A stretch of 63,984 nucleotides of DNA, filler included, from Cladosporium halotolerans (taxonomy: Eukaryota): NCBI RefSeq assembly GCF_011745625.1. It is 5 parts of 5 records of this genome, joined end to end, with 100 filler letters (N's around TTAATTAATTAA, not from the genome) between each part and the next. Parts side by side here need not be neighbours in the genome. Positions count along the whole stretch, not along the records: positions 1 to 15,668 come from NW_027191559.1; 4 more parts are not named here. One strand, given 5' to 3'. Below are positions 1 to 60,867 of the stretch, in pieces (position 1 is the stretch's first letter; each line of letters opens with the position of its first letter). The notes beneath the pieces were generated by a model. The model saw only the letters and a list, made by a program, of their open reading frames with translations. It was not told the origin of the DNA and ran no database searches. The translations under genes were made by a program, and so were the position numbers.

Positions 1-214
1 AGCGGTGCCAAGATGCAGGCGTCCAATACGCAGACCGGGACACGGTTCAAGCCGTCTCCTCCGATCGATCTGATCCTTCAGTTGCCAGGGAGTCGCGCTA
101 CGATACATCACCAAGCAGTCTGCACTGCATCTCTACCACATTAATATTTGCGAGTTCTCAAACATTCACGCTAGAAGCTTTGTCTATATCAAATCAAATT
201 TAGTATGCGTCGCG

Positions 215-859
215 ATGGCTAGGGAACAACGAACACTAAGGCCCTTAGCGCCTAAAATCACGACTACTCACACGTTGGATCCTGTCTTTCGGACGATCGA
301 CGCCAATTATAACGGCCTCTAAGCGCTGTCGCCGCCGATACTGCGGGTACGGAGAAGTTAGGTTAAAGTTACGTATATAGCTTATTAGAGGGGAAAAGCA
401 AAGGTAAGTTATACCTAGAAAAAACAAGAAGGCTCTAGAAGGGCTCTAACGCTTTAGTAGTGCGATAGCCGGCGACCTTCTTACGAACGTTATATAAAGA
501 AGGGCGTCCTTTACGAGTACGATATTAAACCTAACTCGATACGTTTCGTATCTCTCTAGCGAAAAATCACCGCGCTCTAAGCGGAAGTAAATAAGTTATA
601 CGGACTCTTTCACTATATTCGCACTTACTCCGGCCGTTAGGCTAGGGAATTGTTTTAGGAGATACGGGCGTCGAAAAGCCCTATCGACGTAGTAAAGGTA
701 TCGAGGATTCTACGCGGGTTCTATAAATATACTAAAGGTGAGATAGTGGAAATCGGAACTTATTAGGAGATAAGTCGATATACCTTTTAAGAATGCCTAT
801 AATAGTCCGGATTGGTTTTAAGCCTAGAGATCTGCCTCTTATTTCTAGCCTTCGAATAA
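215..859 (+). pseudogene. RIP-mutated short Zn(II)2Cys6 transcription factor gene
   Basis: ATG215 reads MAREQRTLRPLAPK...VKVTYIAY*RGKAK, then a GTAAGT..TAG intron, then CDSRRPSYERYIKKGVLYEYD. Reversing RIP changes (TAT/TAC to TGT/TGC, TAG to CAG) restores a CxxC-x6-C-x6-CxxC-x6-C cluster followed by a coiled coil. TpA is strongly enriched. Confidence 0.8.
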
Positions 860-909
860 AAACGTATATAGCTATCGTATAGCGGTTTAGTATTCTAGTA
901 CTATATAGG

Positions 910-1448
910 TAGACGCTAATACCGAATAGATTCGTCTTAGAAATAGGATATTATACTAAGTTATCGCTAGTGGTCTCGATACTTTATTAGCTTATAAAAT
1001 GTTTAGAACCGCTAAGACGCGACTATACTACGGTCGTGCGGGCGGTAAGCCCGCTATAACCCGCGGAGCTACCCGAGCGACTAAAAAATAGCTATAATCG
1101 CGATACCGGAGTATCTTCGCGTCTAGCCCTAGTTAGCGGGCCCTAAGACTAATCCTATAGAACGACTAGTCTAGCGCTTATTTATAAGCCGCAACCTCCG
1201 TTAATAATCCCTAACGACATGTATTTAGATATATAACGTTCTTCTTACCGTAGCGTATCTAGTATATCTCTATCTATCTTTATTCGGGCTACCTATCGCT
1301 TCTATAAAGGCTCGAAAGCTAAAGCGCCGAACGATAACGGCGACGATTTAGATAATAAAACGACTATCTACGCGATCGGTGCCCTAAAACCTAATTAGGT
1401 ACGTAGGTAAACGATAGGAGAATAGTAAGAGATAGGTAATTAATTAAG
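910..1448 (-). mobile_element. RIP relic (copy A) of the 5' region and accessory ORF of the pogo-like element at 4076-8443
   Basis: Colinear with about 7815-8350. For example gccctagttagcgggccctaagactaatcctatag (~1126) matches gccctagtcagcgggcctgtaggctgatcctggag (8039), with many C>T/G>A differences. Confidence 0.85.
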
Positions 1449-1450
1449 TA

Positions 1451-1614
1451 ACGTCTATCTATATATAGCGGGAATCTTCTAATATTCGCTCTATATCCGT
1501 TATCTACGCTATATCTTATTAATAACTTATCTTTTGCTATTCTCCTGTCGTTTACCTATAGGCTTAACCGCGTACCGAAGCACCGACCGCGTAGATAGCC
1601 GTTCTATTATCTAG
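1451..1614 (+). mobile_element. RIP relic (copy B): 5' terminus of the same pogo-like family inserted head-to-head into copy A
   Basis: TA(1449-1450)+ACGTCTATCTATATATAGCGGGAATC is a RIP form of the TIR TA+ACGTCCATCCACCTGTGCCGGGAATC at 8445-8418. Positions 1515-1614 are an inverted copy of 1348-1448. Confidence 0.8.
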
Positions 1615-2088
1615 GATATAGTCTAGTAGAGGTAAGTACGCCTACCCTCTATCCGTAAGTTTAAATGTTGTCTATGCTCCTACCAAATTTGGCTTGGCAG
1701 TAAGACTATCCAGCTTCTCAGCTATCTCTTTAGCTTTCATCTCTAATAAAAGCCTAAGTATAATAATAGTATACCATATTTAAAGAGATATCTATTAGCT
1801 ACTCCCTATTATAATTTGAAGTAATTCAAAGTAATACTAAGAGAGTTATAAATTCATCAAGTAGAGATCACGATCGACATAATAAAGTTGGTCACCTCCG
1901 CGGAGCCGGCGGGAGCTCCCGCGACCTTCAAACTTGCGGATGAAGGGTGGGCGTCGCGGCGATTGCGGTCCGGACCGAAAATTTCCGGTCTCAAAATCTG
2001 AGATTGCGACCGCGTTTGTTTGACGTCCTCGCATCCTTCTCTTTGTCCCGGATTGCTATTCGCAAAGCTTGATGCCCTGGTAAACAAC

Positions 2089-2506
2089 ATGAGCTTCATA
2101 GGGCTCTTATTCTGTACTGATTGCGGAAATCTGCTCCCGCGAGCAAATAGACAACAGATGCCGCACATCATATGCGATGTCTGCGCAAAGTCAAATAGCA
2201 GTATGCATGCCTTTGATATGCAGTATGAATTGCGCTGAACGTTTCGCAGACCAGTGGCCCGACGAACAAACTACGGTATCGCGACCCGAAGCATTTCCTT
2301 CATCATTGCGACGCAAACTCTTGTCGAATACGATCGAAATCTCACAGGATGTTGCCAACTCCCAACAGACTGCGAATGAAGAATGTCCTAGATGTCACAA
2401 TCCGCAGCTGCGATTCAGCGAGGCTCAACTGCGTAGCGCCGATGAGGGATCAACAATATTTTACACGTGCCCCAAATGCGATTACAAATTCAACACCAAC
2501 AATTAG
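2089..2506 (+). CDS. RPA12: RNA polymerase I subunit A12.2 (RPA12)-like protein, two zinc ribbons, one intron (2201-2249)
   Basis: N-terminal LFCTDCGNLL...CDVC. After the GTATGC..CAG intron comes the C-terminal TFIIS-type ribbon CPRC...QLRSADEGSTIFYTCPKC. Confidence 0.92.
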
Positions 2507-4933
2507 AACGGCACAAGAACGCCAGTCAGTCATGGGAATGCGGGACAAGGCACAGCGTACATCTGCCCTGATCTTGGAATCCATTTTTTTGGTTCTACAG
2601 ACATCTGAGGATTGCACTTGAGACTGGAGCCTAAGCGAGAGCAGCTGCGGTTCTTCGCAAGGGCCGCACTCAATGCCGCGCTCCGAAGCAGGCGCGCAAG
2701 AGGCAGAATGGCCTTGGAGGAACAGGCAGAGGAGTATCGTCCTGAACGCAGAGGTTGTATGTTACTTGCGGATTAGCGAGCAGGAGAACACGAAAAGCAG
2801 CATACGTGGTCAACTCCACTGGTACTCTGCCTGTAAAGCCTTCTGCGCACTTCAGGCATGTAGCTAAGATCAGAATTTCCATCACGCAAAAGCTGCCATC
2901 TTCGAAGTGTATCAACACATCTTCTTCATTTGTTCTGGCAGCTCCTGTAAATGGTTCGCGATGGGCGACTGAGTCGCGAAAGCAGGCCAGAAGCGCCCCG
3001 GACGTTCTTGGGGCGGGCATAGTTACTAATTTAGTGACAACATGGGTGGGCGCTGTTTCAGGTGCAGCGCTTAAACAATGGAGCGGCGCCCCCAGCTACC
3101 CTGTGTTGATCAAGGCAGGTAAGGGCAAAGAGTAGCACATTGTTCTGGCTTCTTGGAAGCTAATCAGAATGTTTTATGGCTTGCATGGACAGCGTTTCAG
3201 CCCCGTCGCTTAACGCCTGCGGCGGCGCAGGCAGCATGCCTTCCTGAAACATCCGATTGCGAGGTGAGCAGCTTTGACAGTATATGAGCTACTGTATTCT
3301 TCTCACCTCTCATTCATTCTCTGTTCCCACTCAAACACAGCGATTGAACTACGCAGCCCAAAGATCAAAGCAGTCTGATCCATTCGACTATTACCGGCAA
3401 CCCACTTCACGTGAGGATTCCATGAGCACAATTCTTATCAAGCTGATCTAAGAATAGAGACAGCATGTGCGGCTTCGAAACCTTCCACTATCTTGGATGC
3501 GGCCACGACAGACCAATGGCATGGAAGCATTGTCCAGCTTCTGGAACCACTGGCAGACATACCCATCTTGGATTCACAACCAACGTGGCAGGCAAATGCC
3601 CTGATTGCGGGAAGGCTCAGAAGAAATGATGTGAAAATGCATATTTAGGATTGACTAGCTGGCTAGCCAGTCTCAGAATTGTGAGTGTGGAAATGCAAGC
3701 AGACCGGAGTTCACTCGCTGACACATCAACACAGCGGGTACTGTCTTGTGATGGACTGGTCGAATATGGCCTTTCTCAAACGTAAATATTATGCTGGCTT
3801 GCTTTTATTTCTCTCGGCTACCACAATATGTATCATCCAACAAACCCTTTCTATCCACCGTCCCATCCTTTATAGAACTGTCTGCCAGCTTGAAGCTGGC
3901 CTCGCGAAAAAGGTCATGAAGGCCCAGCAAGCTTGCTCCGCCTGCCCCGCGCGGCTAGTAAGGTCGACATGTCATAAAATGAGAAAAGCATCAAAAGCTT
4001 ACAGTCGTTCCAAAGTCTCTTCGGGAGTCGCAGGACACCCTGTGTGACAGATATCTGGCACAAGTTCCATGTGTAACGCCCATCTCTGTCCTGGGACACC
4101 CTGCGTGACGGGACACTTCTCCCATGATTTGCTCTGTATCCTTTTTCCGCGTCGTGCTTAACTTGTAATCTAACAATATTCCTTGCGTTTCTCCGCACAC
4201 AGACGAAGATTGAGATGCTTGCGATTCGCCACACGCAGGATGCCATCCTGACGCACTGGATACCGTATGCAGCTACTCCTTTTGATTCGACGGCCGGCTC
4301 ACCGGTCGATGCAAGGTGATGCAGCGTCGCTTTAGCATATCAACGCGCAGGTGAACGGCGAATGAGGGTCCGCCTAGGCGCATTACCCCACATCTGAAGC
4401 TGCCCGTCATGCTCAAGATGCAGCTTTTGGTCCTCAAAGAACCGTCGCGGGATGTCAATGCCTTCATGTGTTGCTTTTCAAGTTCACTGACTATGGCTCA
4501 TGTCCTAAGCGCCGATTTCACGTACAGTGGCAGCTTGGAATGGCACCGCTATTCACCAAAGATCGCAACATGCGAAGGGCAAATCATGTGTGATGTCATG
4601 TGGGTTGCACACAGCCTTGCAGTCTCGGAGGCAAACGGCGGTTCTGCAACGAATTTCCCGAAATCTGCACGAGGGCAATCTTTCTTGCGTGTTCGCTTGA
4701 TGTACTTCTTGCATAGCGCCAAAGAAGCACATATCAGGACTTCGCTTGCGCAGTCAGAGCTCATCATAGGACGACGATCAAGTCACATGTGCGGGCAAGG
4801 ACGCAACAGCTTCAACAAAAAGCGCAGACTGGAAGATATAAAGGATTAGCACCTTCGCTTCCGTTGCAGTATGGCTACGAATCGCAATATGAGTATTCTG
4901 GTATCGACATTGGGTGCCCATTGAGACTTTGAA

Positions 4934-5802
4934 ATGGAGATTGTGACGCTAGTAACACCCTCCGGGGAGAGGTGTTGCTTGCCCTGGGAAAGATGCATAT
5001 CCTGGCAGGTAAGTAGGTATTCGGTCAAATGGGTTCGGAGACGATTGTTAAAAGCATTCACAAGGTCGTTGAACCATTGATTGCAGCCTACATACGAAAT
5101 CAAGGACATCGGCAACAGTTCAAGGACGGAAAGTTCATGCTGACCAATTCCGCTGGCCTTACCATTTCCCCTTTGGTGTGGCCAGCAGGCGTTCTTCCTG
5201 GATCAGAGGCGGTTTTACGCATCACATCCGATCTCGATGACAATTTCAATGGGGCACACTCCCCCAGCCAGTCGATTCAAGACCATGTTGACCATAGCTG
5301 CAGTCGCATAGCAGTAAGGGTTGATGAAGCTCTGTCACGACTCGAAGAGGTAGATCGACACATCAGTGCATTCCACCGAACAGTCAATGAAAGCATCGAA
5401 GCGCGGCACCAGGACCAGATTGCCCACGAGACACAGACAGAAAGGTTCAGAGAAACTCGGTGTGATGCTCGGGAGCGTGAGCGCGAACTCGAAAGAGATC
5501 GGAGAGACAGAGAACGGGAGTCGGAAAGGGACAGGCGACAGCGCGAAAGAGAGAATACGCAAGACATCACACAAGGTGGGAGGCCGCTTATAACAAGCGC
5601 GCAAGATCCGGCGCAATTTCTCAGCGCAAATACAACCATGGAGACTGATCTGAGGGCACTGACAGACCAGGTCAGAGAGATAGGCGCAACATTGCAGCGC
5701 GCATGTAGAGAACGCGTCCCGTTCGGCCAAAGTGTTATCGTCTGCAGGAGACGGAGACTGAGATGCTTGCGGTACTTCGCGTGCAGAACGCCGCTTCAAT
5801 AG
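4934..5802 (+). pseudogene. Fungal ubiquitin-like-domain protein with an RE-rich coiled coil, probably frameshifted in exon 1
   Basis: VTLVTPSGERCCLPW..(CISWQ after a 1-nt shift), a GTAAGT intron, then IHKVVEPLI...GKFMLTNSAGLTISPLVWPAGVLPGSEAVLRI. This resembles the fungal ubiquitin-like domain pattern (..FPF..C.TWQ...G.YDL....G.II.P.VW..VI.P). An ERERDRR tract follows. Confidence 0.55.
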
Positions 5803-5975
5803 TTGCCGTGGGCGGCACTATAACATCTTGCAGATTCAAGTATCTTGAAGTTGATATAATGAAACTCATGAATACTTGTCTCGCTAATCTGCCGAAATGC
5901 CGATGCGCTCACGCTCCAGCCCGTGACCAAACCAGATCCTCAAATGGCAAGTCGCTTGAGACAGTCAGAAATCTT

Positions 5976-7718
5976 TCAGTACATACGCGCGACTGGCGCT
6001 GCACCAGGACAAGGAGGAATGGGCGCTGCTGTGTGCTGTGCTTGAGCCATCAAGAGCGCGTCATCGGCCGATTCCGCAGCAGTTAGAAGCGGTGACTGGA
6101 AAGTCGCATCCAGAACGGCTTCCTCTTCACTCTTGCGCTTCCGTCGCTGCTTTTTCGCAGCTTTCCTGGCATCTTTCTCAGCTCGCTTCGCTCTCGCCTC
6201 AAAAAGATCCTCGTAACTCATCACTTTCGCTTTGCCAAGGACCAGCGACTTCGTCGCACGGCGGACTTTGGCTTCGTCATTTCTCTTGAGCAGGGATTTG
6301 ATACGTTCTTGCTGAAGAACGCCCCTAGCAATGGACGTTTGAGCTCCTTTAGTGAGCTTCTGAAGGTGTCGCTGAATGCTCTGCTTTCCTATCTCCTCCA
6401 GCGTGTGTGCATCCCTCTCCAGAATGAAGTCACGCAGCGCTAGGAAAGCCTCTGCCGTCACTGGCGTTTCGGGTGTGATGGGCGCTGCAGGGACTCTGGG
6501 CGTTTCGTCTTGACAAGTGGCAGAACTTGACGTCGTTTCCCCACCGGCTTCCGGGGCCGGCAACTCGGCGAGAGGCTTCACCAAGTCCTTCATCACTCGT
6601 TCTGGGTTCAGTGGGTAAAGCCCGCCTTTGCTCCAGCCTGCGAGGATATTCTTCCTCGTAAACGCTTTCTTTCTTGCATAGCTGTATAGAGATGTAAAGT
6701 GTTGCTTCCCAATGGCGTTAACACCGCCCCGTTCCAGGCGCTCAACGGCATCGCGATACGCTGCTTTCAAGGGGGCGAAGACAGCAATGTCACACGGCTG
6801 CAACTTATGAGATGTGTGGGAAGGTAGCCGGCGTAGACGGATGTCACTGGCGAAGCAGTGCTCTAGGATCTCGAGCGTCTCGTGCGTGCCGAAACCATCA
6901 CAGATCAGCAACCGTTTCTTACCCCTTGCTCGTTCCTTGGTCTGCGGGTCGAACACCTTTTTAAGCCACTCGAGGCTTATTTTGGAGTCAGTGTAGCCAG
7001 ACTTGGAACACGCATAATGCCATCCTGGTGTGGGGTGCGTCGTCCAGTTGCCTCTATGGGTGGCCGCTGGCCAAATGACCATAGGGTTCAGAAATCTACC
7101 ATCGGCACTGATGCACTCGATCGCAGTAACCATCGTTCGCTCTACTCGTGCACCTCGATAATCCCGTTGGTCATCCTTTCCTACGAGCACCTTAACAGAA
7201 CCGAGCATAGAGAGCATGACTCCGGTCTCGTCCATGTTGTACACATTCTCTGCCACGATTGCGTCGTCACCCAGTACTTTACTAATCACGTCAAACCAGT
7301 GTTCTACCTTCGGGTATATGTTCTTGTCATGGCGCTTCCAATTTAGTGGTTTCGCTCGTCAGGTTTGTAGCTCTGGATGCCTTCTCTCGAAAGCTTTGGT
7401 CCAATTCTTGTTTGGTGCTTGGGCTGGTCTGTCCACTTCCAGTCAATGGCGGGTCACACTGAAAGCTATTGATGGTATGAACTTGTTCCGTACAGGTGTT
7501 CCCAGGTCGGACATCTCCAGGATAAACTCAATCACGGCCTTCTCCTCGAATGGCGTGAGGTATTGCTGGGCCTGGGCTTTTGCTTCGATGGATCTGCGGC
7601 CACGCGCACGAGCGTGGAGGGTAGAAAGTGGAACATCCCGGTGATCTGCAATAGCACGCAACGATCTTGGTACGCCTGCGGGAACACCTTGCGCCAAAGC
7701 CAGACTGGCTCTGTCCAT
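5976..7718 (-). pseudogene. pogo/Fot1-type DDE_1 transposase (~580 codons) with two premature TGA stops
   Basis: ORFs 7443-7718 (HTH, VPLSTLHARARGRRS) and 5976-7289 are in one frame, separated by two TGA codons that are probably CGA>TGA. Catalytic motifs are NMDETG, ICDGFGTH and LQPCDIAVF. Confidence 0.95.
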
Positions 7719-7814
7719 CCTCGCGATGTGGCCACGCCGTCGAGGTACAGCGGTACACTAGCAGAACCGGTGGGGAGCTCGGGGGAGGACCGGCTGGGGA
7801 AGCGGCCGACCCTG

Positions 7815-8297
7815 TCAAATGCCAAGCATTGCAAGGCTCTGGCGCGCGATCTTCCATGCAGTTTCCATGTGAGCTTGCTTCGCCTCCTGCGGAACACTGA
7901 CCGCCGTTTCGATATCAAAACCTTCGAGACAGGATTCCCCTCCACACGGGCGGACGGTAAGCCCGCGTTGCCGCGCGGTTCTACCCGAGCAAATCGCGAA
8001 GAGCGAAAGCCGCGACACCGGAGCGCATTCGCGCCTAGCCCTAGTCAGCGGGCCTGTAGGCTGATCCTGGAGAAAGACCAGCCTGGCGCTTATTTCTAAG
8101 CCACAGCCTTCATCAACGGTCCCTAGCGGGATGCGTTTGGATCTACAATCTTCTTCTGACCGCAGCACATTCAGCGCACCTGCTTTCAACTCCACTTGGA
8201 TTACATGTCGCCTTTCCGCGAGCTCAAAAGCTGGAGCGTCAAACCATGACGGCGACAATTTGGACGAAGGAACAACTATCCACGCGATCGGTGCTCT
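7815..8297 (-). CDS. Small accessory ORF (~150-160 aa, unknown function) between the 5' TIR and the transposase; start codon unclear
   Basis: Open frame APIAWIVVPSSKLSPSWFDAPAFEL...GCGLEISARLVFL...AMLGI*. The same sequence is recognisable in the RIP copy at 910-1400. Confidence 0.55.
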   Translation of the reverse strand, partial: RAPIAWIVVPSSKLSPSWFDAPAFELAERRHVIQVELKAGALNVLRSEEDCRSKRIPLGTVDEGCGLEISARLVFLQDQPTGPLTRARRECAPVSRLSLFAICSGRTARQRGLTVRPCGGESCLEGFDIETAVSVPQEAKQAHMETAWKIARQSLAMLGI

Positions 8298-9319
8298 GAC
8301 ACATGGTCAGCCCGATTGGTAAATGACAGAAGAATAGTAAGAAATGGCTTATTTACCAAAATGGATGTGGACAATGGATACAAGGCGAAGATTAGAAAAG
8401 GTGTCCCGGCACAGGTGGATTCCCGGCACAGGTGGATGGACGTTACTCCCGTTGAAAAGGCTCGACCGCAGTACGAGTAAGTGTACTGGCCTCTGGCAGA
8501 TGACGAGACGAGTAAAACGACATGAAGCGATGGATAGACACTGTTTGCAACACAGACACACCGTTGAACGATATGATTCAGAGAAGATGGACTTGCTCTC
8601 ACGTTTTGCGCACGGGTAACTTTCGTTGATTAGACGGATCAGATATCGTAAAATCGGCTTTCCCTTTGTAGGCAAATTCTACTTTCCCTGGAGTTTCCAT
8701 GCACTGGCTCGTGTCTGGAAGTATCACTTCCAAAAGTCGTCCATGTTTACTTGGGGAGCTGGTGCTCTCGGCATCCCTTGCTCTAATTTTTTGCGGTCTT
8801 TGATGACTTGCTCGCCCAAGATCCACGCATTCCCGCGTTAAATGCATGATCTCCGTTGGACGAAATATCTGTTGCACCAAGGCCAATGATCTTATTGAAA
8901 ACAAGGGGACCATCGTATCGGAAGTCCTCTGGAAATCGAGTGATGCATCGATCTCCGCGCTTGATGCAGAAAAGCGGTGCAACTTCACGCGATTCCACGG
9001 CTACATTCTTCGGTAGGAGCAAATAGTACCGTAAGCGGTGCCAGCGACCAACCTCTGACCTCAGATTTACACTAAATCTGTTGCATTCACAGCCACACCG
9101 ACCCTCTGTCGTAGTCGATAAGGCGTCGGTTCATTTGGCCTTGGACAACGCCTTACGAAGAGTTGCATAGGTTAACATTCCTCCCCGGCGACTCAATGGC
9201 GAGGCTCGCCGCCACCAGAGTCTCCTGCCTCAATCGCAATCTGACAATCCCCTTTCGCCAGCTAGCCACAAGCCAAAAGATGGTGTGCACAGTAGCTTCT
9301 ATTTAGTCGAGTATCATTT

Positions 9320-11375
9320 TCAGGGCACTGCGTCAAACAAGATGCGCTGAAGATTTTCCAACGTCTCATGGTTTCGACGAACTGTCGGAGATATGGTCGC
9401 ATGTCTCTCCAGGAAATTGACAGTGCGATCAAGGACATGTCGGAGGCGCTCCGCGTTCACAAGCGGTCTTAGGTACCAGTCGCGGAATACCGCACACAGT
9501 AGTAACATGATGGTGAAGTTACTGGTTTCAATGTCAGAAAACAAGCTGTTGGAAGCGGAGCGGGATCACTCACATGTAGGCAGTGCTTTGTAGATCCGCC
9601 ACGATCAACCGATGTGGCACTTGGTCAAATGCCAGGAGGGTTTGGAAAGCGGCTTCGATACAGGATCGGCGACCATCCATAAATCGTTCCTCTTTCATTG
9701 CCGCAATGGCTTCATAGACAAACACCTCGGCCCGCAAGTTCGTGATGACACAAATTTCTACAGCGGCTTGCTTGACTGTGTAGCCGATATCATAGTATGG
9801 CCGGATGTTCAGAGCGAAGCTTAAGAAGGGCCTATACATAAAGTACCGGACCCTCCAGTATTTGGCACGCAGCCGCGCATGGAGCATGTCGCAGGGAGGA
9901 CCATCCGAGTCATTCCATTGCAGATTCTTGGGCAGATGGTCTCTCCACTCCTGAAGAACAGTTCCGCAATTCATCAGCTCAAATCTTAAAACGTGAAATG
10001 TGGAATGGCGCTCTTGCCTGTATAGTCGATCATACAGGTCCGCAAGATGCTTCTCCAAGGAAATTTGCGCAGTCAAGAAGAGGAGCAGCTCTTCGGGAGG
10101 TCCTCTTGTAAATTGGACTTGCGACGTTGCTTGACAACTTTCTGTTCCAGACCAGTCTTGCGGCAAAGATAAGAAAGTGGAGAGCTCCGCAAGATGACTT
10201 GTGCGAGTATCCTCATGGGGCGGAGCTTCGTTCTCCAGCTGCAAACACGACCAAGCGGCGATCAGTGTCAACGACTCACTAAAGGTCCGTGGAAGTTCAC
10301 ATGGCGGAGTAGCGTGGATACTCGTGCCATAGATATCGTTCGCGCCGAACACTTTTCGGAGAGTCTGGCCCGCTATCGCAAACCATGATTTGCTCTCTTT
10401 GACGCGGTCAAAGTGGGCAGCAAAGAGACCGGCCAGCAGATACACCTGAGCACACGTCAGGGTTTTGTCTTGAGACGCTACCAAAAGAGATCTCATGGCT
10501 TGCGTGTACCACTTCGCACCCGGAAGAGAACAAGGATTGCCAAACTCGCGGCTTACATCTCTTTGCTGGCATGACGAAGACTTCGTTTGTTCGCATACCT
10601 CGCCAAGTGCTAGTACCAGAAGTATCAACACATTGTCCAGGTCAACTCTTTGGGAAGATGCGAATACCTGCAAGGCATTTCGACGCTTCGAGTGTCCGTC
10701 CGGGGCCTCATGGGCACCAGATCTGTGGGCGCTCACTCTCGCAACGTTGCTCATGATATAGTCATCAAGAAGCTCTCGGACGTTGCGTATGTCGAGAAAA
10801 GGGTAAATGCTATGGATCTGCTCCACATAATTGGCAAAGTAGCTGTTGATGGTGGTGGCTGCAAGTTCCGGGCTTTCGCGGCGCGAGTTTAGCCCAGGCA
10901 GCGACATGGTCGGTTCTGCGTATATCCGAAGGCTCTGCTGAGAGTGACTGCTAATCGTCGTCTGGCTTCCAGAGATATGTTCCATAAGATTGGCCACGCT
11001 TGGCCAAAACAAGATCGATTTTGGTGTTACCGTGCTGCGGGAGCTTGGCCCGGTGTCGGGTTCAAGCTGTTCAGACCGTAGCTGCTCCATCTGCAGGGCT
11101 ATTCCATCGCCTTCATGCTGCGCGGAGATCTTTCGACGCCTTGGTAGAGCATCCAGAGGCCGTTGGGATCGGGCACAGGCGACATACTCGCAAGTAACGC
11201 CACGGCTGCTGCATCCAGCACAGGTTGGTCTTCTGTCACAACGTTTCTTCAGCCTACGGCATTCCTCGCAAGCCCCCCCTGACCTTTTTGGCCGTCTCAC
11301 TTGTCCAGAGATGGCAAGTCGCTGCGACTTCAGGTCTCGACGATTTCCCAGCTTGCTGGAATAAGAGATGGTCAT
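9320..11375 (-). CDS. Zn(II)2Cys6 transcription factor, FTF1/FTF2-like family, with one 3' intron (~9550-9575)
   Basis: CEECRRLKKRCDRRPTCAGCSSRGVTC cluster. Family-type motifs are LILLVLALGEVC, AWSCLQLE, LTAQISLEKHL and DMLHARLRAKYW...YRPF. A last exon frame lies at 9320-9544. Confidence 0.85.
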
Positions 11376-12443
11376 GTCAAAAGAGCGACACTTGTTGTTC
11401 GGGGCACAGAAAAGTGAACAATTGCAAAAATTTCTCGTCAGAGAATAGACATTCTCGCTAGTTATTGTCAGCGCCGTTGGCGTGAAGATTTCAATGCGCG
11501 CACAGCATGCTGAAGTATGCCGGCGCTGACCTGGACCTCTTGCACACTTCTGCCTGATGCTGCCCTGAAGATTCAGCCGCAAAAGGCGCCAAGTGCATTG
11601 GCACACATTTCAGGACTCGTCAATATCCTGGTTCGCCCCAAAGGATGGACTTGACTGCCAAAGCCCTAGCCTCCAGATTGTATTGGGTAGCGTCGGCTGA
11701 AGATTAGAGCAGCATGTGAAGCGCGACCTGCACCTAGAAGCCAGGGGCTGTCATCGTCATCACTGACGCCACTAAATCAGCACTCAGGGTTGGCTGTGTC
11801 ACCCCGTTGCCTGGATGGCGTTCACACCTCCAATTCGCGAAGTCGGACGACGAAGACGTACCGACCGGGTTCCACAGCTGAAGCAAGCGCCACCTGCCAG
11901 GGATCGGGGTCATCCAAGCACGAACTCTAAGACAACATGAGATGGCACGTGCGAGCGGGCTCCCCATGGTCTCTTCGGCTGAACACTGAAGTTGAAGCGT
12001 GAACTACGGGCGAGGCGAGAAGGCCGACGTCCCGTTACTGGACCGTGCTTCTCCGAAGTGAAGAGACCGGATTTTGCTTGGAAAACCGTGCCTTCCGGAT
12101 CCTCCTCATGATCTTAAAATCCAGAAGATGGCCATCGCTGGCACGGTCGCGTGCTCACTGTTTGTTGCAGCAGATGCTGAGGAGATGCGAGTTTCGGTCT
12201 ACATGAATAGCATAGCCATCAAAGTGGAGTTTCATTGCCGCTTGATAATAAGACCCCATCGATACTCTACATCATCGGCGCCTTCACTACATGCGTGAGC
12301 ATCTATCACCCCTGACAGCCTTCGTTAAGGAGCAAGTCGTCTCAACCCTTCTTGCAGAGATACAGTTCCGGTCGGGTCACGCGATGCACAAAATTGTAGA
12401 GAACGCCAATTGAATGATCAGACTCCTCAGTCTCCGTGGCTGG

Positions 12444-13581
12444 TCAAGACCTCGGAGATGTTGTACATTTTTCGATTTCTTGGACGATCAGTTCTATGTC
12501 GGGCGTGTCAGTTTACCTGGGTACCAAGGTCTCCCAATACAGACTTACTTCTCACTTTATCTATGCTCAGACAAATGGGTTCACCGAAGTTCAGATAATC
12601 ACGAGGTATACGATGCGCTTCAGGTTCGTCGGCAGAATCGTGGTACACTCCGAGGTATGGATGTTCCAGGGCCATCCCTACACTGATGCGCTCGTCAGGA
12701 TTGAAGGACAACAGTCGGTCCAATATGTCGAGTGCTTGGTCGGAAGCACGCGGGAACAATCCTTTCCAAGACGTTTTCGACTTAAGCGGTAGTCGTTGAA
12801 TGTGCCTTTGCGCACTTTTGTCGAGCTTGTGAAAGTCCTTCGAATAAGGCGTCCCAATTACATCGAAAATTTGACCAAGCTGCTCCTCATGCCTGGTTCC
12901 AGAGAAGAGCCGTTTGCGGCCCAACATCTCGGCAAATATGCATCCAACGGCCCACATATCTACAGCCGTGGTGTATCTCTCCGGTGGAAGCATGATATCA
13001 GGTGCCCGATAGCAGAGGGAGCCGACTGGTCCAGTCGAAGTGCCCTTGGCAACATCGCTGTTCGTTGAAGGGCGCGCAGCACCAAAGCCGGACACCTTGA
13101 GGTCGCAATTGGTGTTGATCAGCAGGTTTGAAGGGTTGAGATTGCAGTGAACGATGCCAGCAGAATGTATTGCTTTCAACGCACGCAGGATTTGATAGAG
13201 GAAATACTGGCAGTGGTCGTCGGACAGTTCTTGATTGCCGTCCATTATGAGCGACTGCATGTCCGTTTCCATCAACTCTTGGACAATGTAGACCTCTTGA
13301 CAGGACTCAGAGTTGCGCGGTCGAGGGACGTCTAAGACCGGAATTATGTTTTCGTGGTGAAAGTGACGGAGCAGCTTGATCACGCACAAGACGCGCAGAC
13401 CGCATTCCAGATGTTCGAACGGGAGTGATCTGAGGATGGCGACTTGCTGCTGGGATTCTTTGTGTGATGCAGCAAAGACAGTGTGATAAACGCCTTCTGC
13501 CAGCCGGTCACAAAGGTCGTATTCAGCGCCGGGGTGGAAACCGCTGTTGGAGGACCAGGATTCACACTCGCCGCGAGGCAT
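12444..13581 (-). CDS. Fus3/Kss1/Pmk1-derived MAP kinase-like pseudokinase
   Basis: Colinear with Fus3-type MAPKs (EVYIVQELMETDM, LSDDHCQYFLYQILRALKAIHSA, HPYL..YHD..DEP). A GTAAGT intron near 12548 leads to a last exon LIVQEIEK..*. Catalytic motifs are substituted. Confidence 0.9.
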
Positions 13582-14260
13582 CTAGGGGTTGATGCGGGCA
13601 GTTTCTCACTTTGGCGGAGCTGACCATCAAGAGTAGTTACCCATGTTGATATTTTGCAGTCTCTCTTGTATGGTGTGTGGGTCGACTAACAAGGTTGACG
13701 GGTGCCAAATGAAGTTATGGAGATGACGTGAAGGTCGTGGATGCCGAGTACTTTGAGGGTAGCATTTAAAACCGCTCCTGAAGAATAGTGATAGTCAATG
13801 CCATGCTAGTTTAGCAGAGTGTCTTACGATACCGCAAAAGACATCGGGCGTCCAGCATCAAGACTGCGCCGTCTTGGCATGACGACTCCCGAGGACCAGA
13901 TTCACTAGCTCGATGGATCAAAGTATCACATAGTAGGCGAGGTAGGCGAAGCAAAGCTGGCGGCTGAGGGCAGGGGCGAGGGCAGGCACGCAAACGTTGA
14001 TGGTCAGCGATCAAGGTCGAGAGCGTTTCACAGCAGCGCCTCGAGCTCGGCTCGCTTCATCAAAGCGTCTGCAGCTGCATTCGATCTGTCATCAAGAGCT
14101 ACCCAGCAACAAGGCGATCGGCACAGGTGCAGTGAGTACAGTTATGGACAAGGCGATCTCGAGGACAACATATCGTGCATTCCACTGCGCGCGCTTCTGG
14201 ATTGATTCTCAATTTAGTGCATTTGACACCAGGTCGCACGTGGTCTGAGCGAATCCAAGA

Positions 14261-14697
14261 CTACTCCTCCTCATGCGTGAACACCAGCACCTCGAAACCC
14301 GTGTCTCCTCTAAGTTTGAGCGGAATCACTTTCTTCGCATCTTCCGCGTTCGCCATCAGCACTTCTTTTGTGGACTTGTTGTAGATATAGAACTGCGTAG
14401 ATGCGGGTGGCGACGTACACAACACTGCAGGATGTCAGTCAAGGCGAGATTTCCGAGGCACCTGCTTACAGCAATTTTGCTGCACCCTTTTTCTGAGAGA
14501 TCGTGAGCATGTGAAGAGGAAGCCAGGCGGAAAAGCACTCACCCAAAAGAATAATTGACCAGTGTGCTTGTGTCGCAGCGCTTATCATGTCCATAGTCGT
14601 TCATCATACCTGGTCGGCTCGGCAACTCGTGCAGTAAGTGGAATAAGTAATGATAAGAGCAGTACGTGATCCGTTTGCTGTGACACCTCATTTTCAT
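14261..14697 (-). CDS. Small multi-exon hypothetical protein
   Basis: GTGAGT (~14541) and GTAAGC (~14469) donors with CAG acceptors link short exons to a terminal exon ..TQFYIYNKSTKEVLMANAEDAKKVIPLKLRGDTGFEVLVFTHEEE*. No family recognised. Confidence 0.35.
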
Positions 14698-15569
14698 TCG
14701 CCGCAAAATGATGTTGCGCGAGAGCACTGGCCAAAAACGAAGCGTAGGGCGCGATGTATGTTGGATGGAATGTGTAAGAGGAGGTGTATCCTCTCCTATC
14801 TAGTGCGGTAAAGACGATACATATGTAGCCCTCCTGAAACCGTGGCGTGTCGCAGATGCGACGCATGGCTGCCTCAGGAAGGGACTGCATTGCAACAATG
14901 TAGCTGATCGATGTGGTCGTGAGAGTTCGCGCGGCCTTGGAAGACTGAACAATATATCGTCGGCTGCGGGGTCGTATCACACAGCTGACCGGGCTGCTGC
15001 TTTGATCGTGGTCGCGAGGGTAGATTAAACGCTTTGAGGATACGACAATAGACATAGCCCATGCCAATGCAGTGCTGACGGCTTTGGCCCACTTCAAGAT
15101 ATGACCGAATCAAGTTGAGACCTTTAGGTAGTCAAAGGTCTGAAGCTTTCCGAACGCGACATCCGCGGCCGGCGCGGTGAGGCCAATAAGTGGCTGTCGC
15201 CTGCACTCTTTCTCGAACGCACTTGAGGACACTGTCTAGCGACTCGCAGATGTTGACCACCACGAGCGGGAGGCGTGAGCTCCAGATGCTTTGAACTCAC
15301 ACAATCATCTCGCGTTGTCCTCCTGTCTGGGTTCAAGAGCCAGTGCTCTTACTTATGCCGTGGCCACACGGAAGGGGAGCCGCTTGGATTGGTCCTCATC
15401 AATAACAGCCGACCCGTCATATCTCTGATCTATCTCGCGCCCGTGCCGCGTGATCTTACCTATTTGACATCTCAGCCTTGACGCGATAGACTTAACAGTC
15501 TCTCATATCATAGCTTTCGTTAGGGGAATGTTGCCCAAGTACATGTGTATATCATCCTCGAAGGAGCGC

Positions 15570-15668
15570 TGATGATGATGATGATGATTTTCATTCAGGC
15601 TATGCACGGAGACCGTATGAGCCGTCCCTAATCGCTACCTAACATTACAACGAAAGTCGCCTTGCACT
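15570..15668 (-). mobile_element. Probable 3' end of a LINE (Tad1-like) cut by the contig end
   Basis: The minus strand ends ..GCCTGAATGAAA(ATC)6, a microsatellite tail typical of fungal LINE 3' ends, directly at a contig break. No coding part is visible. Confidence 0.5.
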
Positions 15669-15768
15669 NNNNNNNNNNNNNNNNNNNNNNNNNNNNNNNN
15701 NNNNNNNNNNNNTTAATTAATTAANNNNNNNNNNNNNNNNNNNNNNNNNNNNNNNNNNNNNNNNNNNN
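15669..15768. other. Artificial contig linker
   Basis: N44-TTAATTAATTAA-N44 (stops in all six frames). Confidence 0.99.
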
Positions 15769-26209: not shown

Positions 26210-28813
26210 CATAGTGGTCTGAATTTGAATTGGATTCAACAGGGATAATGAATATTCATATGAATCTGAATCTGGATTCTGGTGTCTGAATATTCAACAT
26301 ACATTCAGATTATTCAGATTATTTTCAGGGTTAGGGTTGGAGTTCCAGCCTCACGGGTCATTCATAGGCTCTCGCAAGAATAATCCGGGGCCCCGCAAGC
26401 GTTGCGAGTCTGCCGCTTACCGTATCAGGTAGGGCGTGCTCCCGCAATTCCAGCATGCATGACTTTTCAGGGGACTTAGTATCCAACTGCCGCTGCTCTG
26501 TGACGTCCGAAATGGATGCAGGAGCTGCAACGTCGATCGCCGACGGTGAATGGCTTTACCAAGCCCGCGCTTCGTCCTCCACTCCGCGAACGTCAAGCAT
26601 CGATGCCGAAAGAGATTCGACATCTGGCTCGTTCGATCTCTGAAGCGCAAGCGATCATCATGCCCGAACACCAAGGGAGTCCACCCAGCCTGGACGTACG
26701 CTCGCGTGCGTCTACCCCACGAACCTGAGCGCAACCGGCATTACCAAAAGCTCTTTTACTGCAAGCAATGCGACTACTGTCAAACCGATACAGAACGCTG
26801 AACAGCATCTCCGCTCCAGCCACGGCGTGCGCCTACAGCGAATCACAGCGTCACCGATTCTCGACGCCCTACAAAGACAGAAAGAGGAGGGCGAGTTGCT
26901 GAGTCGCACTGCGCAAGAAAAGTTGCTGCTCAATGTTCTGAATAAACGCCGTTTCCGGGACGCTCTGGCGCGCTTCATCGTGCGTGCGAACGTCAGTCAC
27001 CGCGTAGTGGAGCTCGACGAGTTTGAGGAGCTTTGCAGAGCCCTGAACCCGCAGTGCGCGCAAACACTGTTGAAGTCGCATACATCTATACCGCGACGGA
27101 TACATTTCAACTACGAGCGGCAGCGCCGCGTTGTGGCACGGGCATTGCAGTCTTCTGCGTCACGTATCAACATTTGCACGGATAGCTGGACGAGCGGCGT
27201 CAACCATCAGGGCGAGTTCCAGTCTATCTTTGCCAGGTTTGTGAGTGGAGACGGCAAGCTTCAGCATGCGCTTCTCGCCATGCCTGACCTCCACCACGGA
27301 CACGCCGGCGAGCTGGTGGCTCCTTTTTTCATGAATGCCCTCGAATCGTATGGAGTCGAGAAGCGCTTGGGCTACGTCACTGCAGACAACGCGAGTGCCA
27401 ATGATATACTATGCCGGGCGATAGAAGAATCCTTGTCGAGCCGTCATGGCATTGATTGGAACGCGAGACAGAATCGACTGCGCTGTCTCGGTCACGTTCT
27501 CAATATCGCCGTGCAAGCCTTTCTCTTCTGTCGCAACGAGGAAGCTTTTGGGATGGCTACACAGCGGATACTCAACTCCGGCTCGGTTATCAGGGATGCG
27601 GTAGTCGGCGAGGGGGGCTTCGCGAGTCACGGCCCGCTGAACAAGGTGTATCGGCTTGCCGTCGCAGTGCGCAACTTGGCTCTGCACAAAGAGTTCAAGG
27701 ATCTTGCGGGGAAAGTGCTGAAGCTACCTGGTGAGACCAGGTGGAACGCCTGGTACACGCTTCTTGCTGACGCAATAGAATGTCGCGACGCTATTGCAAG
27801 GATGATAGACCGCCACGTCCAGCTAGAAGCTTTCAAGCGTAGCCGTGACGAGTGGCAAACCCTCCAGGACGCATCCGGCTTCCTTCAACCGTTTTACCAG
27901 GTCACGATGTTGAGCCAAGGTGATCAAGCCACGTTCGACAGCTTCCAGGTGCAGATCGATTTCCTGATAAAGCACTACGAGGACAGCGAACGCAGGTTCA
28001 CTTCTAAAGCAGCACTGCTTGCTGCATTCAACAAGTACTACGAGCTGTCAGATGATGTGCCGGTGCACGCGGCAGCTGTTCTGCTCCATCCCGGCTATCG
28101 GAAAGCGTACATGGACAAAGTCTGGAAGCGATGCTGGATCAAGCCCGGCATCGAGAGAGCGAAGAAGCTTTTCGAGACTCGCTATCGACAAAGTGCAATG
28201 AAGTCTCCCGCTTCTGACGCAGTGGAGCAGAATGGGGCTCAGACGGCATGGGATTTTCATCGTAACAGATTATTGCAGTCTCTCACATCCCAGAGCCAAG
28301 ACGGATTTACCGCCTTCATCAACGCCACGCCTACGAAGATTGCAGGGAGTCCCATCGAATGGTGGAGCCAGCCTGATCAGAAAGCCGCCTACCCACAGCT
28401 GTGGCAAATGGCGATCGATTGCTTGAGTGCGGTGCCGATGAGCGCTGCTAGCGAGTCAAGCTTCAGCGGGATGAGGAGAACAATTACCTGGTCACGTAGC
28501 CAACTAGGCGGGCAAGTCATTGAAGAGGGAGAATGCTTGAAGGATTGGCAGTGCCGTGGCTATGCTTGCCAAATCGATGACGGATACGATTCAGATAGCT
28601 CTAGCAACGAGGATTCGCTCGCGCCCGTCGAAGGATGGATCTGAGGTGAATAGATCATTGTAAGTCAGCGACTTCACTCACATCTACATATGCCAAGACT
28701 TGCCAAGAAATGACGTCTTGAATAAAATCTGAATACTGGATAATGGGTATCTGAATTGAATTGAATCTGAATACGAGTTTCTGAATCTGAATATTCAGAT
28801 TCAGATCACTATG
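26210..28813 (+). mobile_element. hAT DNA transposon, full length
   Basis: TIRs CATAGTGGTCTGAAT / ATTCAGATCACTATG (14/15). Dense subterminal TCTGAA/TTCAGA repeats at both ends. No 8-bp TSD is visible. Confidence 0.92.
26512..28644 (+). pseudogene. hAT transposase with frameshifts in the 5' part and BED finger
   Basis: CTDSWTS, VTADNASAND, RCLGHVLNIAVQ, ETRWNAWY and SAASESSFSG lie in the 605-aa ORF. The BED finger is split between frames (FYCKQC.. / HLRSSHG). Confidence 0.9.
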
Positions 28814-31213: not shown

Positions 31214-31313
31214 NNNNNNNNNNNNNNNNNNNNNNNNNNNNNNNNNNNNNNNNNNNNTTAATTAATTAANNNNNNNNNNNNNNNNNNNNNNNNNNNNNNN
31301 NNNNNNNNNNNNN
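31214..31313. other. Artificial contig linker
   Basis: N-TTAATTAATTAA-N, 100 bp. Confidence 0.99.
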
Positions 31314-46164: not shown

Positions 46165-46264
46165 NNNNNNNNNNNNNNNNNNNNNNNNNNNNNNNNNNNN
46201 NNNNNNNNTTAATTAATTAANNNNNNNNNNNNNNNNNNNNNNNNNNNNNNNNNNNNNNNNNNNN
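46165..46264. other. Artificial contig linker
   Basis: N-TTAATTAATTAA-N, 100 bp. Confidence 0.99.
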
Positions 46265-60767: not shown

Positions 60768-60867
60768 NNNNNNNNNNNNNNNNNNNNNNNNNNNNNNNNN
60801 NNNNNNNNNNNTTAATTAATTAANNNNNNNNNNNNNNNNNNNNNNNNNNNNNNNNNNNNNNNNNNNN
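60768..60867. other. Artificial contig linker
   Basis: N-TTAATTAATTAA-N, 100 bp. Confidence 0.99.

Follow-up and report, generated by a model that had tools for sequence, protein, structure and literature searches.

The pseudo-MAPK gene and its product

The stretch of DNA analysed here (the window, 63,984 nucleotides with filler, from the mould Cladosporium halotolerans) carries on its minus strand an intact two-exon gene which, judged by its sequence, encodes a catalytically dead paralogue of the Fus3/Kss1/Pmk1-type mitogen-activated protein kinases (MAPKs). We refer to it as the pseudo-MAPK gene. A first-pass annotation had placed it at 12444-13581, and these coordinates proved exact, with an ATG (13581-13579) and a TGA (12446-12444) at the two ends. 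The gene is built as follows.

12444..13581, minus strand: pseudo-MAPK gene, ATG to TGA, 360 codons plus stop once spliced
12549..13581, minus strand: exon 1, 1033 nt, residues 1-344 and the first base of codon 345
12494..12548, minus strand: intron, 55 nt, phase 1, with donor GTAAGT, branch point CTGAC and acceptor CATAG
12444..12493, minus strand: exon 2, last part of the L16 helix (KLIVQEIEKCTTSPRS) with the stop

A 357-aa stop-to-stop frame (12508-13581) runs into the intron, and intron removal yields a 1083-nt coding sequence with a 360-aa product, identical at every residue to the NCBI protein KAL1581887.1 (WHR41_09401, Cladosporium halotolerans; P0121). The two-exon frame is thus intact, as expected from the first-pass description of about 360 codons without a stop or frameshift. 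At position 13341 the window has G (Pro81), where two DNA runs and an RNA run have A (Ser81). Ser81 is also the residue of canonical MAPKs and of most proteins in the family, and the Pro81 of the window copy is a private change at a conserved site; among the substitutions listed, it is the sole well-supported one in the coding sequence across runs.

By descent the product belongs to the MAPKs (CMGC group, ERK/Fus3/Pmk1 subfamily) in both similarity and fold. Residues 25-310 match Pfam Pkinase (E 1.8e-43), and a PDB search gives as the closest relatives of solved structure ERK1/ERK2 (E 2.9e-83), followed by yeast Fus3 (E 7.8e-82). The AlphaFold2 model, built on a 58-row alignment, reaches a mean predicted local distance difference test score (pLDDT) of 84.8 and a predicted template modelling score (pTM) of 0.88, its weak parts being confined to residues 1-15, the activation loop and the last three residues. 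The activation-loop blocks at 171-190 average pLDDT 55-61, with residues 175-180 below 50, and the L16 helix (340-356) is confident. Foldseek matches the model to ERK2 structures (TMq 0.83-0.87). The common docking (CD) motif and the C-terminal L16 extension are both present, and the protein takes its place among the fungal Fus3/Pmk1 orthologues in the trees described below.

The CD patch and a second docking patch were said to persist, and both were recovered by re-translation.

12622..12645, minus strand: CD motif YHDSADEP, both acidic residues retained
13102..13116, minus strand: NTNCD, in the beta7-beta8 segment

We take the NTNCD segment to be the counterpart of the ERK2 segment with the "ED" docking site. 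The alphaE stretch SDDHCQYF is retained too, as are the MAPK insert and most residues of the docking groove.

Loss of catalytic and switch residues

The catalytic motifs have been lost from the glycine-rich loop to the APE motif.

13483..13500, minus strand: glycine-rich loop AEGVYH (canonical GEGAYG), degenerate
13432..13443, minus strand: VAIL (canonical VAIK), beta3 catalytic Lys to Leu, K50L
13381..13398, minus strand: helix C LRVLCV, E67V; Arg66 is Cys here and Arg in most other copies
13126..13149, minus strand: catalytic loop HCNLNPSN (canonical HRDLKPSN), R146C, D147N and K149N, with Asn152 retained
13081..13089, minus strand: GFG (canonical DFG), Mg-binding Asp to Gly, D165G
13027..13035, minus strand: activation loop TGP (canonical TEY), Thr retained, Tyr gone
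12997..13005, minus strand: APD (canonical APE), Glu to Asp

All seven motif substitutions listed in the first-pass annotation are present at the aligned positions, in the alignments, in the motif census and on re-translation. Two of the three glycines of the glycine-rich loop are gone, and Arg189 and Trp190, directly after the TGP loop, are replaced as well. The motif census scored eight key residues in an alignment of 144 MAPK-like matches of 300-520 aa. All eight are retained in 128 of the 144; six of the eight are non-canonical in the window protein and in each of its five full-length relatives. Such a pattern goes beyond chance. Viewed as an enzyme, therefore, the protein has neither the T-x-Y dual phosphorylation motif (TGP in its place) nor the catalytic residues (K50L, E67V, D147N, D165G). 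The available part of PMC13519141 defines a pseudokinase as a kinase fold without at least one of the VAIK Lys, the HRD Asp and the DFG Asp. The window protein matches this sequence definition, with all three residues missing.

The losses concern not only catalysis but also the switch. Arg146 (of HRD) and Arg189 are, we assume from the established MAPK structure, the residues that bind the phosphorylated activation loop; since both are replaced, it seems that a MAPK kinase could no longer activate the protein. The catalytic residues, the activation-loop Tyr and the arginines for sensing its phosphorylated state are all gone, so the pseudo-MAPK could neither phosphorylate a substrate nor respond to a MAPK kinase, and looks neither catalytic nor switchable. 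The Pfam and PDB matches, the splice model and the motif census agree on a Fus3/Pmk1-class MAPK that has lost catalysis while its gene is intact, as the first-pass annotation had it.

Origin within the Pmk1 branch

Among the 144 MAPK-like matches 16 are degenerate, and 15 of these are without the DFG Asp (GFG in 13, SFG in one, GFA in one); the further residue losses vary by lineage among the DFG-less sequences. The trees were quick ones, with long branches and without an Slt2 or Hog1 outgroup. In the 52-row tree, a 21-row clade with a support of 99 in the Shimodaira-Hasegawa-like approximate likelihood ratio test (SH-aLRT) stands beside the Pmk1 of Cladosporium sp., Hortaea and Cryoendolithus, and consists of five divergent, catalytically intact paralogues and all 16 degenerate rows, the window family included. 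The 38-row tree, from which the three longest degenerate rows, among others, were left out, gives the same placement with a support of 93. The stem of the window family measures 2.3-2.4 changes per site (2.34 in the 52-row tree) against a median end branch of 0.11-0.12, and Pmk1 itself evolves slowly, with end branches of 0.02-0.06. A single loss of the DFG Asp in the clade is likely. The intact half of the clade includes two divergent Pmk1 paralogues of Cladosporium fusiforme, P0045 (Q7P37_009860) and P0347 (Q7P37_009881), which share a 500-kb contig and are separated there by about 21 locus tags.

Three genes have the 3' intron at the identical codon and in the identical phase: the window gene, its sister paralogue L003 and L005, a canonical Pmk1-type gene 96% identical to the Pmk1 of Cladosporium sp. 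NU13. This common position and phase points to duplication at the DNA level and not to retroposition. An origin by retroposition was rejected on this ground, canonical Pmk1 being itself a one-long-exon gene in L005. A descent from Slt2/Mpk1, of the Mlp1/Kdx1 type, was rejected as well, since the tree and the best matches place the gene with the Pmk1-type kinases. The best-match labels are mostly generic, the specific names being Pmk1, Fus3, Kss1, Spk1, Kpp2 and MAK2; a single uniref "HOG1" label (P0035) is the sole exception among the subfamily-specific names.

The window protein thus resembles the ERK-type kinases Fus3, Kss1 and Pmk1 in its fold, in its identity of about 50% to Pmk1 orthologues, in its nesting in the tree and in the 3' intron, the CD motif, SDDHCQYF, the MAPK insert and the L16 helix, and differs from them in the missing catalytic residues and TEY Tyr and in its very long stem. 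Pmk1/Fus3 is the central kinase of mating, invasive growth and development in filamentous ascomycetes and normally a single-copy core gene, whereas the window gene is multi-copy on unplaced repeat contigs. Closer in kind are nine DFG-less paralogues of the same clade (P0012, P0013, P0053, P0056, P0075, P0099, P0139, P0334 and P0335), in which the DFG Asp is also missing (GFG in seven, SFG in one, GFA in one) and which have in common with the window gene one long exon and the 3' intron. They are, however, only 41-51% identical to the window protein; most retain the beta3 Lys, the helix-C Glu and the HRD Asp and some retain TEY, whereas the window protein has none of these, and no Zn2Cys6 gene neighbours them at the two loci that have flanks, while the window gene has such a neighbour.

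Multi-copy family and genomic setting

The window is not one continuous piece of the genome. Four linkers divide it into five segments, small unplaced contigs joined in descending order of length (15,668, 15,445, 14,851, 14,503 and 3,117 bases). The first of these lengths is also the one recorded for the contig of KAL1581887.1.

15669..15768, 31214-31313, 46165-46264 and 60768-60867, unstranded: linkers of the form N44-TTAATTAATTAA-N44, joining the five segments

Only bases 1-15668 are physically linked to the pseudo-MAPK gene. Since unlinked contigs have been joined, the idea of an accessory module put forward in the first-pass annotation can rest on the first 15,668 bases only; the bZIP, hAT, tannase, GH18 and MFS frames lie on later segments and are uninformative about the neighbourhood of the gene.

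Close relatives of the protein form a single small family. A word-indexed protein search returned 1815 proteins at E <= 1e-20 among 3363 candidates, and the best 120 of the 1815 contain one close cluster only (P0001, 95% identical), the remainder being at most 53% identical. Clustered at 90%, the family has nine members: two C. halotolerans genes, WHR41_09401 and WHR41_09508, which lie on separate short contigs, 15.7 kb and 8.1 kb long, one protein with the label Cichorium endivia, and six from public assemblies or metagenomes. The Cichorium-labelled member (P0124, on a 38.9-kb contig) departs from the family after the TGP motif and is probably a mis-called gene model on a fungal contaminant contig in a plant assembly. 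Exon 1 diverges by 2.9-9.2% of its residues between the six full-length copies, and the dead motifs are shared by every copy that covers them. An exhaustive search of representatives adds one 165-aa fragment at 94% and contains no relative of intermediate identity, between 94% and 55%. At the DNA level, the metagenome matches listed are all at most 56% identical, and no close paralogue was found in the prokaryote-genome and viral collections. Words of the gene were found in 20 of 24 listed runs, from 16 studies with many organism labels (best share 0.81), a spread which fits a ubiquitous mould appearing as a guest.

The gene stands beside a transcription-factor gene, and the two appear to have been multiplied together.

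9570..11375, minus strand: Zn(2)Cys(6) transcription-factor gene, 601 aa, single open frame
8369..14644, unstranded: apparent co-amplified unit holding the transcription factor and the pseudo-MAPK, edges approximate

The factor gene lies 1068 nt downstream of the pseudo-MAPK gene on the same strand. Two DNA runs give 215 and 171 aligned pieces on the 15.7-kb contig, with likeness from 99+% to below 90%, and in both the summed contig depth is 3-5x higher over 8369-14644 than over 1570-7845. The two genes therefore appear amplified together as a unit of about 6-7 kb, with several diverged copies per genome. The two runs have break points in common at about 8011, at 8444 and at 15595-15631. Positions 8404-8437 hold an exact 17-nt tandem duplication (TCCCGGCACAGGTGGAT twice), just before the contig stop at 8444/8445 in two runs. 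A search for terminal inverted repeats or long direct repeats at the borders of the unit gave only short matches of 14-30 nt, at chance level.

The neighbour had been called FTF-like, a label that we drop. Its only Pfam match is Zn_clus (E 3.3e-5), and its Atlas matches are generic Zn2Cys6 clusters. It is alike to Fusarium FTF1/FTF2 in having a Zn(2)Cys(6) domain and in being multi-copy on repeat-rich DNA, yet the likeness seen in the protein is that of a generic zinc cluster. As for the module of factor and kinase, on the contig of the gene the two look co-amplified by depth, but a tblastn search with the factor found no relative at 80 metagenome loci with MAPK relatives, L003 and L004 included; no more than two of the loci, both of the sister subclade, have flanks useful for linkage.

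The remaining frames on this contig are the following.

5976..7358, minus strand: pogo-type DDE_1 transposase frame, E 7e-32
2102..2506, plus strand: TFIIS zinc ribbon frame, E 5.3e-15
5017..5802, plus strand: ULD_2 ubiquitin-like frame, weak, E 1.7e-4, below the Pfam cut-off

The small contigs are transposon-rich: the next one carries a frame with a hAT dimerisation domain at 26644-28644 (plus strand, E 2.6e-13). Bases 1-1600 bear the marks of repeat-induced point mutation (RIP), with a GC content of 0.43, TpA/ApT of 1.55 and (CpA+TpG)/(ApC+GpT) of 0.37, and in this RIP-like stretch other copies have C/G where the window has T/A, e.g., at 549-801 (two DNA runs).

Coding constraint

When a canonical coding sequence was mutated randomly down to 50% amino acid identity (about 349 changes), none of 300 simulated sequences was free of stops, the mean being 7.9 stops, and only three small indels separate the window protein from canonical MAPKs. 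Long-term neutral decay of the lineage is excluded. RIP was rejected as the source of the gene's substitutions: the gene carries no RIP signature, though bases 1-1600 of the same contig are RIP-like, its TpA/ApT (0.50) and (CpA+TpG)/(ApC+GpT) (1.23) are normal, and several of the changes require transversions or multiple steps.

Copy-to-copy comparison took in 12 of 42 indels, and 1108 further substitutions lie beyond those listed. None of the 12 listed indels falls in the coding sequence or in the transcription-factor frame, and 11 are in the flanks of these two. In the sister dead subclade, L003 and L004 compared with L006 give a ratio of nonsynonymous to synonymous substitution rates (dN/dS) of 0.29-0.30 at dS 0.37.

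Transcription

Contigs of RNA libraries cluster on the gene. All seven aligned contigs of library X15 lie within 11756-14637, with a likeness of 86-99% and three of them inside the coding sequence, and none lies on the other 12.8 kb, including the equally multi-copy 8369-11500; the gap over the transcription factor is not taken as a sign of its silence. Library X17 adds one 202-nt contig inside the coding sequence, with one difference. These data, which cover X15 and X17 and leave aside the RNA runs X16 and X18-X20 (shares 0.06-0.10), hint that related copies are transcribed.

Discussion

We propose that the window gene is a maintained dead paralogue of Pmk1, present in several copies together with a Zn2Cys6 factor, and that its product acts as a decoy or buffer by constitutive docking; we put the probability of this reading at roughly 0.55. 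Pmk1 was duplicated at the DNA level in a Cladosporium-related (Dothideomycete) lineage, and the duplication gave rise to a clade of fast-evolving Pmk1 paralogues, in which the loss of the DFG Asp is common to most of one branch and further catalytic residues were lost independently in several paralogues. The window subfamily is the most degenerate of this expanded clade. The data show this descent, along with the gene anatomy, the motif losses, the predicted fold, the multi-copy state and a coding constraint over the long term. The proteins of the subfamily may bind, constitutively and independently of phosphorylation, the MAPK kinase, the phosphatases and the transcription factors that are D-motif partners of Pmk1, and such binding could buffer or divert the Pmk1 pathway. 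A joint role with the co-amplified Zn2Cys6 factor is possible. Beyond the first-pass annotation, the present analysis brings in the concatenation of the contigs, the multi-copy state of the gene, the expansion of Pmk1 in the Cladosporium lineage and the losses of Arg146, Arg189 and Trp190.

A number of observations weigh against this proposal. The first-pass annotation spoke of a docking surface that was kept; this stands for the CD patch and most groove residues, but a two-residue insertion (DG) lies in the alphaD-alphaE loop, beside the docking groove, and Tyr231 and Tyr260, which are invariant in canonical MAPKs and presumably line the FxFP-binding pocket, are both His. Likewise, the description of the gene as a selected dead kinase is borne out for the lineage, which was long kept coding as the simulations indicate, while for the present copies the proxies of selection are non-significant. 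Among sites invariant in canonical MAPKs and still canonical here, 14 of 125 vary between copies, versus 36 of 190 other sites (Fisher p = 0.083). At least 52 missense changes would be accompanied by 2.5 stops if neutral, with a probability of 0.079 of seeing none, in a catalogue that is biased to open frames. Harsh single-copy changes occur at invariant sites (Y98D, L103P, H123Y, D208H and P295R), and the cluster of nine includes four fragments, 161-224 aa long. Neither the aligned RNA-library contigs nor any read crosses the intron, and DNA may be present in such libraries.

In the sister dead subclade, on which the dN/dS check proposed with the first-pass annotation was made, the low values are accompanied by a metagenome relative, L013 (741-1844), which has in-frame stops and a higher dN/dS of 0.38-0.47. 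The clade therefore both keeps and loses copies. The stops of L013 fall at the beta3 Lys codon and at the Trp of RWYRAPE; its frame was lost later, and it is a plain pseudogene. Selection acting on the present copies of the window family is something that we infer, and a present-day usefulness of the family is plausible.

A less probable account, yet one to be taken seriously, regards the copies as young repeat-borne duplicates without present function, passengers of an amplified 6-7 kb repeat that are drifting to decay; an ancestral dead paralogue would once have been maintained, and its copies would be open only through the short time elapsed. This account draws on the repetitive nature of the whole 15.7-kb contig, on the short unplaced contigs with their adjoining pogo-type DDE transposase and RIP-like stretch, and on the non-significant tests, damaging singletons in several copies, fragments and sister pseudogene just described. 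It has difficulty, however, in explaining why the dead motifs and the frame are constant, in the copies that cover them, up to 9.2% amino acid divergence, and why none of the listed indels falls in either coding frame. The splice signals are undamaged, as is the L16 motif after splicing, the RNA-library contigs cluster on the gene, and the dN/dS of about 0.3 in the sister dead subclade speaks against simple drift as well.

It is improbable that the factor and the pseudo-MAPK are the cargo of a mobile element (pogo-, Starship- or Helitron-like) which multiplied them in its own service. The unit is multi-copy, its break points are common to two runs and a DDE_1 transposase frame lies on the same contig; on the other hand, terminal inverted repeats and long direct repeats are lacking around the unit, the break points fall on the 17-nt tandem duplication and with short tandem repeats, which break unitigs anyway, the transposase stretch lies at a depth 3-5x below that of the unit, and a scan of 21 open frames on the contig brought up no recombinase or helicase frame. 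Least credible by far is an atypical but active kinase that uses other catalytic residues in the manner of WNK. Asn152 and the overall fold are retained, but the beta3 Lys, the helix-C Glu, the HRD Asp, the catalytic-loop Lys, the DFG Asp and two glycines of the glycine-rich loop are all gone, and the alignment shows no Lys or Asp that would make up for them.

For the proposed docking decoy, the nearest precedent is Mlp1/Kdx1 of Saccharomyces cerevisiae, from the Slt2 branch, to our knowledge the only studied MAPK pseudokinase of fungi. It is, like the window protein, a catalytically inactive fungal MAPK paralogue. The parts of the literature available describe Kdx1 as a pseudokinase homologue of Slt2 (PMC3983003) and Mlp1 as activating Swi4/Swi6 non-catalytically, in its phosphorylated form (PMC9106771), with a loop that retains the Tyr as K-G-Y (PMC4769017). 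In these accounts Mlp1/Kdx1 acts by binding where it has been studied, whereas binding by the window protein is our proposal; Mlp1 works phosphorylated and keeps its loop Tyr, whereas the window protein is without the loop Tyr, the HRD Arg and Arg189. The window protein, without the loop Tyr and the Arg residues for the phosphorylated loop, would therefore not be switchable in the manner of Mlp1. Mlp1 derives from Slt2 and the window protein from the Fus3/Pmk1 branch, and the window gene is multi-copy, unlike Mlp1/Kdx1.

Our literature searches found no description of a Fus3/Pmk1-derived pseudokinase. A MAPK census of 173 fungal species reports, in the part available, nine activation-loop variants (T/S/K-x-Y), all ending in Tyr, and mentions there neither TGP nor Cladosporium (PMC4769017). 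A review of pseudokinases mentions neither fungi nor CMGC kinases in the available portion of its main text (PMC7586955).

The wording of the first-pass annotation, which tied the gene to a pathogenicity cascade, is not upheld. The sole source organism named for the exact protein is C. halotolerans, which is a halotolerant saprobic mould.

A bolder version of the proposal, which we hold only tentatively and rather doubt, is that loss of the DFG Asp founded a selected and hitherto undescribed clade of dead Fus3/Pmk1-type MAPKs in Cladosporium-like moulds, of which the window gene would be the extreme, co-amplified with a Zn2Cys6 factor into a multi-copy module. Its products would be docking decoys, constitutive and impossible to switch, and would titrate the MAPK kinase, the phosphatases or the transcription factors of the Pmk1 pathway. 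If this is true, the gene dosage of a dead kinase would set the gain of the Pmk1 pathway.

If the copies are drifting repeats, they would represent the ordinary birth and death of a duplicated gene. If, instead, the dead paralogue is maintained as a decoy or buffer, the family would offer a natural experiment in the non-catalytic functions of MAPKs, showing which docking surfaces suffice, and would test whether the dosage of a decoy can tune the output of a pathway. It would also call for caution in genome-wide counts of MAPKs.

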